Source of the DNA: an uncultured Oscillospiraceae bacterium
GTDB taxonomy: Bacteria; Bacillota; Clostridia; UBA1381
DNA length: 28,476 bases
Assembly (NCBI GenBank): GCA_946531785.1
Contig: CAMNAT010000001.1
Span: 1-28,476, forward strand
Direction: 5' to 3'
Shown here: in pieces, positions 6,053 to 15,985 of the stretch
Layout: the number at the start of each line of letters is the position of its first letter
How positions within the stretch are numbered: the stretch's first letter is position 1
Program-made: the position numbers and the translations under genes
Notes under the pieces: generated by a model
The model's database searches: none
Seen by the model: only the letters and a program-made list of their open reading frames with translations
What the model was told of the DNA's origin: nothing

Positions 6053-6256
6053 AAAAAAAGACCCCGGGATAACCGTGGTCAGAAGTCAGAATTCTACCTG
6101 CAATTGCAGGTGGGTCGCTTCCCGTCAGCTTTACAAGTCCACTGGCAGTCACAAAAGTGAAAGGAGGCATGTGCGCCGCAAACGGAGTCAGCATCCCGTA
6201 TAAGATGTGTTGGTAAAATAAATGACTTCCCCACGCGAAATCCCAGGGTTGTTTGT
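6053..6256 (-). ncRNA. ssrS: 6S RNA (probable)
   Basis: About 200 nt on the minus strand fold into a long rod: ACCCTGGGAT pairs with ATCCCGGGGT, CGTGG with CCACG, GAAGTCA with TGACTTC. There is a large central bubble whose 3' side holds the hairpin CCTGCAATTGCAGG. The closing stem is followed by T7, and a dedicated sigma-A promoter lies upstream. Ends are approximate; an Rfam RF00013 scan would confirm. Confidence 0.8.
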
Positions 6257-8141: not shown

Positions 8142-8657
8142 ATGGATCAGATAACACACGCATTGGTCGATTCCCTTGCGGCTCATAATATTTCGCCGCA
8201 TATCATCACATTTCTGGTATCAATGATCCCGCTTCTGGAGCTAAGAGGAGGAATTCTTATCGCAGGCACCGTACTAAAGCAGCCGTTCATACTGACATAT
8301 ATCACAGCTGTTCTCGGCAATATGCTGCCTATCCCGTTCATCCTGCTCTTCATAGAAAAGATATTCCAGTGGATGAAAAAGATAAAGTATATAGAGAAAT
8401 TTCCGCACTGGTGTGAGGCGAAGGCGTTGAAGCATTCAGACCAGATAAAAAAATACGGCTACTTCGGACTTTACCTCTTTGTTGCCATCCCCTTGCCCGG
8501 AACGGGTGCGTGGACCGGCAGTCTGCTTGCGGTCCTGTTGGGATTAAAGCGCGGAAAGAGCCTGCTGTGTATCTTTTTAGGCGTGCTGACGGCGGGACTT
8601 ATCATGTCACTTGTAAGCTACGGCGCATTGAATTTTATCCTGGATATGTTTAAGTGA
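8142..8657 (+). CDS. Small multi-drug export family membrane protein (COG2426/PF06695)
   Basis: Motifs SMIPLLELRGGI, GNMLPIPF and FVAIPLPGTGAWTGSL. ATG follows the kinase stop directly, with GGAGG inside the upstream gene. Confidence 0.85.
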   Translation: MDQITHALVDSLAAHNISPHIITFLVSMIPLLELRGGILIAGTVLKQPFILTYITAVLGNMLPIPFILLFIEKIFQWMKKIKYIEKFPHWCEAKALKHSDQIKKYGYFGLYLFVAIPLPGTGAWTGSLLAVLLGLKRGKSLLCIFLGVLTAGLIMSLVSYGALNFILDMFK

Positions 8658-8692
8658 CGGATACATATATAAATAACGATAAGAGGAATAAT

Positions 8693-9226
8693 ATGAACAG
8701 CGCATATATCTATCTTCAAATATACAGATTGTTTGACAAGAGCACTCCGCTCCCGCTCGACTGCGGGCGCTATTGCAGCGAGGCGTGCTGCAAGGGCGAC
8801 AGTGAATCGGGCATGTACCTTTTCCCCGGCGAAAAGGCTGTTTTTGACATGGTGTGTCCTGACGGATGGAGAATAACCGATTCCGAGCTTACCTACAGCT
8901 ATAACGGAAAGGAGCGAAAAACTCCCATCCTGATCTGTGACGGAAGCTGCGACAGATATTTCCGTCCGCTTGCATGCCGGATATTCCCGCTGACGCCGAT
9001 CCTCGACAATGAGGGGCATATAAAGATCATTATTGATCCGCGCGCAAGATCGGTATGTCCGCTTGCAAACACATTCGATAAAGACGAATTCGATAAGGAC
9101 TTTACCGAGTCTGTAAAAAAAGCCTTCATATTGCTCTCAAAAAACAAGCATGTCTATGAATTTTTGAAGACCTATACAGAATATATAGAAGAATACAACA
9201 GATTTTTTAAAGATCTGAGAGGGTGA
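8693..9226 (+). CDS. YkgJ-like cysteine-cluster protein (putative Zn/Fe-S binding)
   Basis: Cys pattern DCGRYCSEACC...CDGSCDRYFRPLACRIFP...VCP. ATG 8693 has GAGG upstream; GTG 8654 is an alternative. Confidence 0.6.
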   Translation: MNSAYIYLQIYRLFDKSTPLPLDCGRYCSEACCKGDSESGMYLFPGEKAVFDMVCPDGWRITDSELTYSYNGKERKTPILICDGSCDRYFRPLACRIFPLTPILDNEGHIKIIIDPRARSVCPLANTFDKDEFDKDFTESVKKAFILLSKNKHVYEFLKTYTEYIEEYNRFFKDLRG

Positions 9227-11028
9227 CATACTACATGGATTTAGAAATAAATAACAACAAAGAGCCGGAGGGCTCAGATCAAGATAAAGATGTCGGCAGG
9301 GATCCGGCGCGCCCATCGCGCACTGAATTTATGCAGGCAGCCGCAGAAAATCTCGTTGCGGCAACAGAAGAAAATCCGTTCTCGGAGCTTGATGATGACG
9401 ACTTCATTCCCGATGAGAACGCGTATAAGGAGACAGAACAAGACATTGAAGAGACCAAAGATGACAGTCTGGAGTCAAAGACTATGAGCGCGGCAAAAAG
9501 AAGTCCCGCAAAAAAGAGAAAAACGACAAAGAAAAAGAACAGCTTCAAAAAGTTTTCCGCAAAGCATAAAACGGCTATGAAGCGCGTTTATATGGGCTTA
9601 GGCGCGGTATTCTGCATCATCTTCGGAATATATATATACGCATGCATAACTGCTCCGACAGACAGGATGGGCAGAAATGTATATATTGAAAATGTAAATG
9701 TCAGCAATATGACATTTAACGAGGCAGTGTCTGCCGTAAAAAAGGAAGAGCTTTTGCAGACACAGAATATCGTTTTAAGATGCGGCGGGCAGAAGTTTGA
9801 GATAGGCGGCGCAGAGCTTGGTATGACAGCCAAGATCGAGGATACCGTAGACAAAGCGATGCGATTTGGTAAAACAGATAATGTGTTCATAAACGGCTTT
9901 GCAAATATGCTGCAGATGATAAGCCCGCACAAGGTCATGCCGAACGCGAATATAGATGAGACAGTGCTGCGCGAAAAGCTCAGGCAATTCGGCGTGCAGA
10001 TATACGGTGAGCTGCAGGAGCATGTTCTTGAGATAGGTGATGGCGTTGTGGTCGCAACTCCCGGACATACCGGCTTCGACACAAGTGAGGGCTCCACAGC
10101 CTGCGATAAAGCCGCCGGCGAGGTGCTTAACGCTATCAGCTCCGGAGAATCATACCATAACATCAGCGTGACACTTGAAAAGACCGCGCCGAGGGATTGT
10201 ACAGCAGACGATATCAAGAGCTTTGCAGACAAGGATCCCGAGGATGCCAAATATGCACTTGAAAACAACGAGATCTCTATAGTTCCCAATGCTGACGGAC
10301 GCGTTGTAGACGCGGCACAGGCGGCAGATCTTGTAAAAGGACTCAAGGAGGGCGGCGAGGTAGTTTATATCCCGTTCAGCTCCACTCCGGCATCGGTTAC
10401 CGTTGACACACTTCGCGAAAAGCTCTTTAACGCGACAATAGGCTCATATTCGACAAACTACGGATCCTCGAGTGCAAACCGCTGCGAAAATGTCGCAAGG
10501 GCGGCAAGCAAGATCAACGGCAAGATACTTCTGCCGGGAGATGTGTTCTCATTCAACGCCACAGTAGGGCCTCGTTCAAAGGCTAACGGCTTCTACCCCG
10601 CTCAGGAATATCTGAACGGAGAAACGGTCGAGGGTATCGGCGGCGGTACGTGCCAGGTAAGCTCGACATTATACAATGCCTGCATATATGCCGATCTTTC
10701 GATAATCACGAGAACAAACCACATGTTCCCTGTCGGCTATTGTCCGCTCGGTCAGGATGCAACTGTAGCGGATACAGGTGTTGACTATAAATTTGTAAAC
10801 AGCATGGATTATCCGATAAAGATATCGGCAACCACCAGCGGATACAGGATAACGGTCAGCATCATCGGTACTCAGCGCGACGATCCCCGATCGGTAAAGA
10901 TCGTCAATACCGTTACCCGCGAGGGCGAGGATACAAGAGTTCAGACCAAGCGTGAGGTCTACAACAGCGCCGGTGAGCTTATAAGCACGGATCAGCTTCC
11001 GGCAAGCTACTATAAGCCGCACCACTAA
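9223..11028 (+). CDS. VanW-domain envelope protein: acidic cytoplasmic N-terminus, one TM segment, PG-binding-4-like region, VanW domain
   Basis: VanW motifs R.ENVARAASKING..LLPG.VFSFNATVGPR, GIGGGTCQVSSTLYNA, RTNH...GQDATV and DYKFVN. GTG start overlaps the upstream stop (GTGA); ATG 9235 is possible. Confidence 0.9.
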   Translation: MTYYMDLEINNNKEPEGSDQDKDVGRDPARPSRTEFMQAAAENLVAATEENPFSELDDDDFIPDENAYKETEQDIEETKDDSLESKTMSAAKRSPAKKRKTTKKKNSFKKFSAKHKTAMKRVYMGLGAVFCIIFGIYIYACITAPTDRMGRNVYIENVNVSNMTFNEAVSAVKKEELLQTQNIVLRCGGQKFEIGGAELGMTAKIEDTVDKAMRFGKTDNVFINGFANMLQMISPHKVMPNANIDETVLREKLRQFGVQIYGELQEHVLEIGDGVVVATPGHTGFDTSEGSTACDKAAGEVLNAISSGESYHNISVTLEKTAPRDCTADDIKSFADKDPEDAKYALENNEISIVPNADGRVVDAAQAADLVKGLKEGGEVVYIPFSSTPASVTVDTLREKLFNATIGSYSTNYGSSSANRCENVARAASKINGKILLPGDVFSFNATVGPRSKANGFYPAQEYLNGETVEGIGGGTCQVSSTLYNACIYADLSIITRTNHMFPVGYCPLGQDATVADTGVDYKFVNSMDYPIKISATTSGYRITVSIIGTQRDDPRSVKIVNTVTREGEDTRVQTKREVYNSAGELISTDQLPASYYKPHH

Positions 11029-11038
11029 ATGACACATG

Positions 11039-11075
11039 CGGGATGTAAAAACCGGGTTTTTACATCCCGTTATTT
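11039..11075 (+). terminator. Hairpin/terminator after the VanW gene
   Basis: Stem CGGGATGTAAAAAC / GTTTTTACATCCCG (11039-11069), followed by a weak TTATTT tract. Confidence 0.7.
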
Positions 11076-11091
11076 ATAGGAGAAAATCGCT

Positions 11092-12402
11092 ATGCAGAAT
11101 ATAGACGGCATGATAATTAATAATGAGATCACCCCGGACAGACTTAAAAGCTCTGTCGGAGAAGACGCTGCCTTCCACGCATGTGTGCATAAGATACGAA
11201 GCGCGTCGGGCTTTTCGTTTGTAATGGTACGCACGGGCAGATACATCATCCAGACAGTACATGATGCGAAAATGTGCGGAAAGGGACTTGATAAGCTAAA
11301 AGAGGGCATGTATATAGAGCTTTGCGGCACGGTAAAGGAAGAGCCGCGCTCAGAGCTCGGAGTTGAGATAGTACTTAAAGACTTTACACTCATTTCCCGC
11401 CCTGCGGCAGAAATGCCGCTGCATGTTTCAGACAACGCTTTGGGCTGCAGTTTAGATACGAGCCTGGCTCACCGCACCGCCGCGCTGCGCCATCCGAAGG
11501 AAAGAGCCGTTTTCAGGATATCGGAGGGTGTTGTAAACGCATTCAGGGAGCTCATGCAAGAAAACGCTTTCACTGAGATACATACACCAAGGATAACATC
11601 ATATCCGACCGAGGGTATCAAGGGAGCTTTTCCGATGAAGTATTTCGGCGATGATGCATTTTTATCGCAGAGCCCGCAGCTGTATAAGCAGATCTGTATC
11701 GCCTTCTTTGACCGCGTGTTTGAGGTCGGCCATGCTTTCTGCGCAGAAAAGCACAACAGCGCGCGGCATCTGAATGAGTTCATATCGCTCGATCTGGAAA
11801 TGGGATATGCCAAAAGCATTTCAGATATTATGTCAACTCAAACAGCTGTCATTAAATACATCATCGCATATCTCAATGAACATTACAGCTATGAGCTTGC
11901 GCTTCTCAGTGCAAGCCTGCCGGAGGTCACAAGCATACCATCCGTCACATTTTATGAGGCTTTAGATATACTTAAAAAGCCTCACGAGCAAGTCGATCTT
12001 GATCCGACAGATGATGTAAAGATATCAGAATACGCAAAAAAAGAGTATGGGAGCGAGTTTTTGTTCATCACTCACTTCCCCGCCGTAAAGCGTCCGTTTT
12101 ATATAGCCGATTCAACGGACGATCCGGCACTTACGGAGAGCTTTGATCTGCTTTTCCGCGGAATGGAGATAGCCTCGGGCGGACAGCGGATACATACTTA
12201 TGCCGAGCAGCTTGCAAAGCTTGAGCGCTCCGGCATTGACTCCGAGGAGCTTGAATGGTTTCTTTCATCCCTGAAATACGGTATGCCGCCGCACGGCGGC
12301 TTCGGGATGGGACTTGAGCGATTTGTAATGAAGCTGCTTGATCTTGAAAACATCCGTCAGGCATCGCTTTTCCCGCGCGATATGCACCATCTTATCCCAT
12401 AA
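11092..12402 (+). CDS. aspS: Short archaeal-type aspartyl-tRNA synthetase (aspartate--tRNA(Asp/Asn) ligase-like) with a variant motif 2
   Basis: 436 aa with an N-terminal OB fold and no GAD insertion. Motifs LSQSPQLYKQ, RHLNEFISLDLEM, DLLFRGMEIASGGQRIH and GMPPHGGFGMGLER...LFPRD. AGGAGA RBS. Confidence 0.88.
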   Translation: MQNIDGMIINNEITPDRLKSSVGEDAAFHACVHKIRSASGFSFVMVRTGRYIIQTVHDAKMCGKGLDKLKEGMYIELCGTVKEEPRSELGVEIVLKDFTLISRPAAEMPLHVSDNALGCSLDTSLAHRTAALRHPKERAVFRISEGVVNAFRELMQENAFTEIHTPRITSYPTEGIKGAFPMKYFGDDAFLSQSPQLYKQICIAFFDRVFEVGHAFCAEKHNSARHLNEFISLDLEMGYAKSISDIMSTQTAVIKYIIAYLNEHYSYELALLSASLPEVTSIPSVTFYEALDILKKPHEQVDLDPTDDVKISEYAKKEYGSEFLFITHFPAVKRPFYIADSTDDPALTESFDLLFRGMEIASGGQRIHTYAEQLAKLERSGIDSEELEWFLSSLKYGMPPHGGFGMGLERFVMKLLDLENIRQASLFPRDMHHLIP

Positions 12403-12418
12403 ACACATCTTGCTTTTC

Positions 12419-12447
12419 AAGCCGCAGCATCAGTTGCGGCTTTCTCA
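12419..12447 (+). terminator. Probable intrinsic terminator after aspS
   Basis: Stem AAGCCGCAGC / GTTGCGGCTT (one G-U pair), followed by an imperfect T-rich tail. Confidence 0.6.
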
Positions 12448-15500: not shown

Positions 15501-15985
15501 TCAGCGCATCAATGGACGGTATGCTCCCGGTATCGGCAACTATCTCATCAGAGCCGGTAGCAGTTGAGGGCGGTCTGACACTCGCTATGCCGTCAGTATT
15601 GAAGCCCGGCGCATCAGCAGCACCGGTGACATCAAATGTCGCTCCCATGAAGCCGCTCATGCTCAAAAAGCTTATTATCGACTGGGCAAAGGTAAAGACT
15701 GTAACTGAGCAGGATACAACAGATTATTATGATGTATACCTCGGCGATACAAAGCTTGAGCTCAGTGCAAGAGCATACAAGGGCACAATGGACAACATGT
15801 TCGGTCCGGCTTATGAGATACTCACAGCAGCTAAGAACGCGGGTATAACAGGCTTTGATGTTGCAATGGTCAATGATGACGGTGTTGACACACTCGTTAT
15901 CACAGCTCCTGACAGCACGACATATCACTACCCTGTTAACAGCAACCAATATTTCATTGGCGGCAATAAGTCAAACACAAATTAG
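12584..15985 (+). CDS. Secreted glycoside hydrolase family 2 (sugar-binding, Ig, TIM-barrel and DUF4982-like domains) with a truncated C-terminal copper-amine-oxidase-N-like domain
   Basis: Signal peptide MKRKGFAFLAAVIASQLLLSG..., GH2 motifs NMNLDWKF, LYRKTF, FELEGIRQAAYVWVNG, NSNFIRWMH, RNSPSVVFWETGN and METEY, and HIIGHWSYP. GAGGAG RBS before ATG 12584. The frame continues past the TAG to TAA 16108 (see findings). Confidence 0.88.
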   Translation: MKRKGFAFLAAVIASQLLLSGAATVSVSAESDGIGEAYTAPESPAVTYNMNLDWKFYDTHSDKEIWSAMAMADKDGKKFYEVGYDDSEWETVSIPHGIGGGTNSFTNANTDAGGGYRSVLLYRKTFTVPASAKGGKVFFELEGIRQAAYVWVNGEKVGYYEAGIAAMGFDLTNYVTPGEEAVIAILNDGTTARGTTGRIPYETIPGDEWGSSYTPDNYKHQSKDVVGAQYQWNTKDFNEPQIGLEYDAYLHVKGNVYQTLPLYNNLKTTGNYIYADNFDIRSKKATIHVDAEVRNESDTDGNYTLEVNVVDMDGNLKYNFESSAAEVKKASDKGVVYQTAVESDVYNEDKLTNYTGITDVVTPDVTYINASFDAEDMRFWSTEDPYLYTVYTVLKDGDGKVVDVQKKDTGFRKITFDQNSGIMINDKSVWMPGYAQRSTNEWAVLGVSPDWLEDYDMALLKENNSNFIRWMHVAPKPFEVRSSDRYGVAVVCPAGDKEGASSGRQWTQRTEAMRDVMIYFRNSPSVVFWETGNSAVGDAARANDMARIRDKVDPHGMRFTGARSTQAADQLNFDYNYAGTMYGNYGANAVNAMKSNGIMGPIMETEYARDEAPRRVWDKFSPPDFDYVNKFISKGGKLDGYDVWNKSQEEASVDNVREYNGYYSNRNGYGSSIYSAAAMMVWSDSNMHTRNTATENCRTTGRVDPVRQTKEMFEATKAAQSSESAIHIIGHWSYPELTDDTYNYYGTNQVAVDGSHSYEAYDMTKKYKRDPIHKTVYVIGSADISKVELYRIDGSDETLLGTDDAAEANFIYQFDNIDVTKGDGVIAKAYDARGTEVARDEIARTYDAVSLRLTPHTAVKEDADGNTVTDWRADGADIAYFDVEVVDKNGNVCALNYDKINFTYSGNGTYLGGYNSGSGAGCFQNSSDTTGLSFYFGGAKDGVSTIGKDYVYAENGTNRIFVRSTRTAGDFTLSASMDGMLPVSATISSEPVAVEGGLTLAMPSVLKPGASAAPVTSNVAPMKPLMLKKLIIDWAKVKTVTEQDTTDYYDVYLGDTKLELSARAYKGTMDNMFGPAYEILTAAKNAGITGFDVAMVNDDGVDTLVITAPDSTTYHYPVNSNQYFIGGNKSNTN

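Follow-up and report, generated by a model that had tools for sequence, protein, structure and literature searches.

Why does an archaeal-type aspartyl-tRNA synthetase (AspRS) encoded by a clostridial genome carry a cysteine at the position of the motif-2 arginine, the residue that holds the alpha-phosphate of ATP in class II synthetases? The gene concerned, aspS2, encodes a protein of 436 residues and lies within a stretch of 28,476 nucleotides (the window) from the assembly of an uncultured Oscillospiraceae bacterium (G000; 2.49 Mb, 410 contigs, 78% complete). Proteins of two genomes of the same genus (G001 and G005) are named Candidatus Ornithomonoglobus in NCBI records. An earlier note on this DNA, made from the letters alone, had offered two explanations: a redundant second aspS hit by a recent inactivating mutation or by an error, or a catalytically altered paralog that still binds tRNA or aspartate. 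Here we examine the residue, its locus and its relatives, and weigh these explanations against others. The features of the window are collected in Table 1.

Table 1. Positions of aspS2, its motifs and neighbouring features in the window
Feature	Position	Strand	Basis or remark
6S/SsrS RNA	6057-6252	-	Rfam RF00013, 68.4 bits (gathering score 46.4)
orf190, synteny anchor upstream of VanW	8654-9226	+	flank comparison; no Pfam family
VanW-like gene	9223-11028	+	flank comparison
VanW-aspS2 junction, 63 nt	11029-11091	+	canonical relatives have about 3.4 kb here, including gatC-gatA-gatB
Terminator-like hairpin, 15 bp, directly upstream of the aspS2 ribosome-binding site	11038-11070	+	predicted; -24.1 kcal/mol, z -4.35
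aspS2, orphan copy of gatCAB-linked non-discriminating-type AspRS	11092-12402	+	NF003483 473 bits; PF00152 259 bits; 3nel/1b8a/1n9w E 1e-83 to 1e-85
QSPQLYKQ (193-200), aspartate-binding loop, intact	11668-11691	+	family consensus match
Motif 2 region (213-237); E219, R225, H226, E229, D234, E236 intact	11728-11802	+	homolog alignment
TGC, Cys217 at the motif-2 arginine position	11740-11742	+	sequence, 3nel alignment, homologs
SGGQRIH (362-368; Q365, R366, H368), intact	12175-12195	+	family consensus match
Motif 3 GLER (407-410; R410), intact	12310-12321	+	family consensus match
Terminator-like hairpin 3' of aspS2	12419-12442	+	predicted
TAG in adjacent GH2 gene	15983-15985		in frame near the gene end

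Cys217 and its surroundings in AspRS2

The aspS2 product (AspRS2, P0001) scores 473.3 bits against the NCBIfam model for aspartate--tRNA(Asn) ligase (NF003483; cut-off 353) and falls just under the cut-off of the older model TIGR00458 (349.1 versus 368.4 bits). The Pfam class II D/K/N core (PF00152) is clearly recognised, and the GAD insertion domain is absent; an OB-fold anticodon-binding domain followed by a class IIb core is the archaeal/eukaryal-type layout. The best solved relatives found by phmmer are the AspRS of T. kodakarensis (3nel/1b8a, E 4e-85) and AspRS2 of T. thermophilus (1n9w, E 2e-83), and residues 28-436 align end to end with residues 21-438 of the 438-residue 3nel. The N-terminal domain excludes identity with asparagine synthetase A (AsnA/AS-A), which lacks the anticodon-binding domain, whereas AspRS2 keeps it. 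As a structural template the T. kodakarensis enzyme (1b8a, 3nel/3nem/3nen) is the best available: all residues of the aspartate and ATP sites align, with R214 standing where the window protein has C217, and the template is a discriminating, essential enzyme. Judging from its sequence, AspRS2 is probably of the non-discriminating type. In the phmmer alignment its His33 lies opposite W26 of T. kodakarensis AspRS; replacement of this tryptophan by histidine relaxes discrimination, and His33 is presented as a lead only.

The codons at 11737-11748 read ttc tgc gca gaa (F216-C217-A218-E219), and C217 is placed by phmmer opposite R214 of the FRAEE motif-2 strand of 3nel/1b8a, and both the DNA and this alignment confirm the arginine-to-cysteine replacement first noticed in the earlier note. 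The missing residue is the N-terminal 'arginine tweezer', one of two invariant in class II synthetases, where it forms a salt bridge with phosphate (PMC5919687). The earlier note had named it an essentially invariant ligand of the ATP alpha-phosphate. Its replacement is rare: 133 of the 150 nearest representatives at 50% clustering have arginine. In this respect AspRS2 departs from a catalytically competent class II synthetase. The rest of the site is in good order. E219, R225, H226, D234, E236 and E359 agree with the family consensus, the motif-3 arginine and the acidic metal/ATP ligands are present (R410, E359, D352, E219), and so are the determinants of aspartate specificity (QSPQ loop, K199, D234, R366). 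The claim that everything outside motif 2 looks intact therefore stands for QSPQLYKQ, SGGQRIH and GLER and is weaker for the OB-fold, a borderline but still recognisable match (PF01336, 26.4 bits against a cut-off of 27). Motif 2 has a further peculiarity, P214H, common to the whole clade of 82-97% identity. Since codon 217 is CGC in G016, the closest orphan-copy relative compared at the DNA level, a single C-to-T transition is a plausible origin of the cysteine; the earlier note had pointed out that TGC is one transition from CGC.

The cysteine is not a property of the clade. A search of 5.8 billion protein clusters returned a small group at 82-88% identity (P0002-P0005), followed by more than 100 Clostridia proteins at 56-63%. 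Arginine occupies position 217 in 41 of 41 aligned homologs, including the 82-88% group and P0121, a full-length protein from the query's own 90% cluster that is 97% identical (11 differences). The earlier note had reasoned that arginine in all close orthologs would reduce the case to a private SNP or an error, and this is where the comparison leaves it. Two fragments, P0122 (ENA, 13.7-kb contig) and P0123 (Logan, 1.2-kb contig), do carry the cysteine; over their 282 and 255 residues, respectively, they match the query at 100% identity. Cys217 is thus reproduced across three assemblies, which may derive from one sample, and by these comparisons is private to one strain-level lineage; because the same residue recurs in fragments from other assemblies, a one-off assembler glitch is unlikely. 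Searching metagenome_contigs and genome_contigs for the exact nucleotide pattern, the variable base written as Y, gave zero matches. The related-loci search with P0002 returned only relatives of at most 60% identity and gave no nucleotide sequence from the 82-97% clade.

Among the 150 representatives, 13 of the 14 aligned non-Arg exceptions are also altered at other active-site residues. The remaining one, P0379 from Tilletia maclaganii (995 aa), is a fungal ErdS-like AspRS-DUF2156 fusion with a lone R-to-C change (FCAEN). Of its other relatives examined, 116 of 118 have arginine and two gave no motif match; three other Tilletia proteins among the matches listed (82-84% identical to P0379) have arginine, and the cysteine of P0379 is a private singleton. 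Lone R-to-C changes at motif 2 were seen only as singletons and never as the fixed state of a clade. Two of the deviations of the window protein at near-invariant positions are private to it, R217C and E308D, and R217C alone is radical.

A gatCAB-less locus in a genome with redundant enzymes

In 12 canonical genomes of the genus, gatB is the gene immediately before aspS2; in genomes of the genus, 30-70 nt separate the end of gatB from the aspS2 ortholog. The order orf190-VanW-gatC-gatA-gatB-aspS2 is found in G002, G005, G011 and G031, with G012 cut at a contig end and G006 carrying a divergent version, and the order orf190-VanW-aspS2(-like), lacking gatCAB, in G000, G009, G013, G016, G018, G032, G033, G036, G037 and G038. 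At this locus, each species of the genus that was examined has the VanW-like gene as its conserved neighbour on the upstream side. Because the orf190-VanW anchors are shared with the canonical locus, as represented by G005 (= P0014) and G011 (= P0007), the window gene is the positional ortholog of the gatCAB-linked AspRS2 of same-genus species; unlike the window copy, those of the G005/G011 type have the complete catalytic set, with gatCAB in place. The earlier note was written without this context: gatCAB is missing exactly at the site that it occupies in the relatives, directly upstream of aspS2, and orphan copies are fast-evolving (see below). In three species without aspS2 (G017, G034, G035), orf190 was not found with the window-locus query.

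The junctions themselves differ. An element TTGCAA-17-TG-TATTAT lies upstream of gatC in G005 and upstream of aspS2 in G016, whose 206-nt junction thus retains the promoter-like element of the operon, as against the 63-nt junction with its hairpin in G000, where the hairpin is overlapped by only a weak promoter-like match. Neither a T-box nor another leader was detected upstream of gatC/aspS2 at Rfam gathering thresholds in the window and four relatives. Across 27 species of the genus, aspS2 is divergent or absent in 10 of 10 genomes that lack gatB, and 12 of the 17 genomes with gatB carry a canonical aspS2. In a two-gene species tree the gatCAB-less species fall in two groups. Six derived residues (M38A, Y108M, M243I, L254I, C312S, T362S) are common to the G000 clade and to the remodelled AspRS2-like copies described below, which instead suggests a common ancestry of the orphan alleles; gatCAB may have been lost once or several times.

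Three other arrangements were observed in the genus. G006 (L086:4281-8763) keeps VanW-gatC-gatA-gatB-aspS2 with the whole unit divergent (identity to G005: GatC 33%, GatA 63%, GatB 60%, AspRS2 about 50%), and its aspS2 has lost QSPQ and R366 and kept R217. G037 has a canonical-like gatCAB (L084, G037:C36:11000-23000; 79-87% identical to that of G005) without VanW upstream or aspS2 downstream, and its VanW locus holds a remodelled aspS2-like gene; this split may reflect relocation or a binning error, or AspRS1 may act there as the non-discriminating enzyme. G018 encodes a distant GatB/GatA pair (L085, G018:C44:5650-7712; 38% and 31% identical to those of G005) at a distance of a few kb from AspRS1; this pair is of another type than the VanW-linked operon.

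The second, GAD-containing aspS and the asnS envisaged in the earlier note are both present in G000, as a bacterial-type AspRS1 of 591 aa (NF001750, 811 bits) and an AsnRS of 463 aa (NF003037, 693 bits). GlnRS, two AsnA and one AsnB are also encoded, and given this set aspS2 is redundant in the genome; with AsnA and AsnB present, the tRNA-dependent route to asparagine would not be needed. Of the asnA copies, at G000:C13:804-3216 (L003) and G000:C151:2262-2942 (L007), one lies directly 5' of asnS on the same strand, in what looks like an asnA-asnS pair. The gatCAB genes, also considered in the earlier note, were not recovered: the gatA and gatB TIGRFAM models had no match in the 78%-complete assembly, and tblastn with GatC, GatA and GatB of two relatives found nothing in the whole of it. 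The linkage to or co-occurrence with gatCAB that marks a non-discriminating AspRS is therefore seen neither at the window locus nor in the assembly. GatCAB could sit on an unassembled piece, since the assembly is incomplete and the gatCAB of G037 lies on a different contig. A GlnRS was detected in all but one of the genus's 27 genomes (26; the exception, G016, is 71% complete), which makes GatCAB in the genus an accessory module with the asparagine route as its only task.

Comparison with the AspRS2 of Thermus thermophilus and Deinococcus radiodurans (1n9w, 3kfu) places these observations. That enzyme too is about 420-440 aa long, has no GAD domain and consists of an N-terminal OB-fold and a class IIb core, and it too accompanies a bacterial-type AspRS where AsnRS and GlnRS are also encoded; the adjacency of aspS2 and gatCAB in the window's relatives is a further likeness to this system (background in PMC4206432). 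The window genome differs in having AsnA and AsnB, in the absence of gatCAB from the operon and from what was found in the assembly, and in the cysteine at motif 2. By homology AspRS2 is an archaeal-type enzyme like those of Thermus and Deinococcus, but as sequenced it lacks two features needed for that role, the motif-2 arginine and a GatCAB partner.

Orphaned and remodelled copies of AspRS2

G000 and other species of the genus are 85-93% identical in AspRS1 and 86-91% in AsnRS, but only 58-62% in AspRS2, whereas canonical AspRS2 proteins are mostly 79-97% identical among themselves, in step with the housekeeping enzymes. In the maximum-likelihood tree the canonical copies are short-branched and cluster with families from other Clostridia, every gatCAB-less lineage is long-branched, and the G000 clade has a stem of 0.4 substitutions per site and is weakly joined to G016. 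The divergence of the window protein extends over its whole length and follows background conservation: of the 178 columns with a conservation of 98% or more, 85% keep the consensus, compared with 15-57% in the less conserved classes, and the 26 near-invariant columns that did change did so mostly conservatively. The NG86 dN/dS between G000 and G016 is 0.18, with dS near saturation, versus 0.04-0.07 for canonical pairs. On these sequence measures the orphaned aspS2 copies evolve several-fold faster across the genus, and that of the window lineage is under relaxed but real purifying selection. A long-term dN/dS below 1 argues that the gene was useful in this lineage until recently.

Two other accounts of the lineage were considered. 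We rejected a plain decaying pseudogene: the ORF is intact, 85% of the most conserved columns are retained and dN/dS is about 0.18. Replacement by a xenolog is a poor explanation of the low identity, as the synteny anchors are the same and the clade groups with the gatCAB-less copies of the genus and not with a foreign taxon, although long-branch effects in the tree make this exclusion less firm.

In eight gatCAB-less genomes (G009, G013, G018, G032, G033, G036, G037, G038) the gene after VanW encodes a protein only 37-43% identical to the window protein. In this remodelled set, R217 is replaced by Ser (also by Cys and Thr), E219 by Lys/Arg, D352 by Val, Q365 by Glu, R366 by His and H368 by Ser/Thr; Phe and Tyr occur at 217 among database relatives of the class, and Cys in G013, P0154 and P0155. 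Most members retain R225, H226, E229, D234, E236, E359, G363 and E409, and all retain R410. About 40 such proteins, none of them named, are present in the protein collection (P0127-P0165, 36-77% mutually identical), and the review of AspRS paralogs in PMC9437257 does not include them; they may constitute an undescribed family of synthetase-derived paralogs. Their ORFs are intact and the G032-G036 pair gives a dN/dS of 0.12 at dS 1.2, which argues that the proteins are maintained and functional rather than decaying. The genes themselves, for instance at L077:6065-7321 (-) in G036 and also in L076, L075, L088 and L080-L083, lie directly after VanW in 8 of 8 genomes of the genus examined. The window protein stands outside this class because none of the coordinated changes of the G036/P0127 group is present except the loss of R217; E219, D352, Q365, R366 and H368 are all kept. 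Six further proteins (P0263, P0268, P0274, P0284, P0294, P0307) combine a non-Arg residue at 217 (S/T/M/L) with K219, N366, mostly K359, D234N/S and E236Q, and look by sequence like a different remodelled paralog lineage.

Like HisZ, AsnA/AS-A and EpmA/PoxA (PMC9437257), AspRS2 is a duplicated class II synthetase freed from translation. Those families, however, are ancient and fixed, each with a defined new role, whereas the window allele is a single private residue away from an apparently working enzyme.

Origin and meaning of the Cys217 allele

We consider it reasonably probable that Cys217 marks a recent loss-of-function allele in an orphaned, redundant AspRS of the non-discriminating type, reached through loss of gatCAB, fast evolution and finally R217C. 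The ancestral-type aspS2 would have ended a gatC-gatA-gatB-aspS2 unit downstream of orf190-VanW and fed Asp-tRNA(Asn) to the amidotransferase. With gatCAB missing from the site in the window lineage, the cell would rely on the bacterial AspRS, AsnRS, GlnRS and AsnA/AsnB, and the orphaned gene would then have changed several-fold faster under weakened purifying selection while its catalytic residues were kept. In one strain, a single CGC-to-TGC transition would finally have replaced the arginine holding the ATP alpha-phosphate, a change that should abolish or cripple the formation of aspartyl-adenylate; from the conservation of the residue, AspRS2 activity has presumably been lost. Redundancy of the enzyme would make the change tolerable, and selection may even favour it, since in a cell lacking GatCAB the Asp-tRNA(Asn) product would be useless or harmful; a reference cited by PMC4206432 reports heterologous toxicity for AspRS of the non-discriminating kind. 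In the window strain aspS2 is probably dispensable and R217C selectively neutral. The first of the two early explanations, in which a redundant second aspS has recently been inactivated or contains an error, fits this picture, since the other synthetases are present and the cysteine is absent from the 97%-identical strain and from the other relatives.

It is unlikely that the true codon is CGC and that the T arose in the metagenome assembly as an error of consensus, polishing or strain mixture. In favour of this, the source genome is metagenome-assembled and fragmented, mixed populations are possible because a 97%-identical strain with arginine exists, and lone R-to-C singletons occur in other draft genomes, such as that of Tilletia maclaganii. 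There is also a second damaging change 4.2 kb away, the TAG in the adjacent GH2 gene. The corresponding codon is GAG (Glu) in the G009 ortholog, and Glu is also found in G002; the G009 and G002 frames run about 40 residues further and are homologous to the frame that follows the TAG in the window. This TAG is either a G-to-T nonsense change or an error, and could point to consensus errors in the contig. Against an artefact, the cysteine is carried by P0122 and P0123 from different assemblies, and random read errors would not survive three consensuses.

The second early explanation, a catalytically altered paralog, found no support for the Cys allele, which has none of the coordinated changes of the remodelled relatives. 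In the form that Cys217 is an early step towards a remodelled AspRS2-like paralog, with tRNA or aspartate binding or another role and no adenylation, we find it improbable. The arginine has been lost recurrently after VanW in eight gatCAB-less species, with cysteine in some members, the remodelled proteins appear to be maintained, and the G000 clade shares with them the six derived residues given above; but E219K/R, D352V, Q365E, R366H and H368S/T are all absent from the window protein, and the cysteine is unfixed even within the species-level cluster, where P0121 has arginine. That AspRS2 is still active, another residue compensating for the lost guanidinium, is highly improbable: the clade does have an unusual motif 2 (P214H) and the remainder of the active site is intact, but the arginine of class II structures is described as invariant and salt-bridged to phosphate (PMC5919687), a residue other than arginine is fixed at 217 in none of the clades whose AspRS active site is otherwise intact, and His214 is equally present in Arg-bearing relatives and so did not arise as compensation.

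We propose, more tentatively, that the genus forms a natural series in which a class II synthetase is dismantled or repurposed after loss of its partner. The series would run from the canonical gatCAB-aspS2 unit, through an orphan aspS2 with an intact site and a several-fold faster rate (the window clade and G016), to a remodelled and maintained VanW-linked paralog whose altered pocket is itself conserved, and Cys217 could possibly be a first step caught in the act, at a residue that the remodelled lineages have lost as well.

Taken by itself, the Cys codon is a lesion of one strain in a spare gene and of little consequence. Its setting, together with positional orthology, shows the fate of a non-discriminating-type AspRS after the loss of GatCAB: selection is relaxed, the ATP-binding arginine is lost repeatedly, and some species end up with a non-canonical paralog that is conserved. 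The setting also carries a warning for annotation, as the label 'aspartate--tRNA(Asn) ligase' is attached here to a protein that, on its sequence, is probably unable to form the aspartyl-adenylate, in a genome that yielded no amidotransferase. More notable than the single codon is the progression across the genus from an enzyme linked to its operon, through an orphan, to a remodelled paralog.
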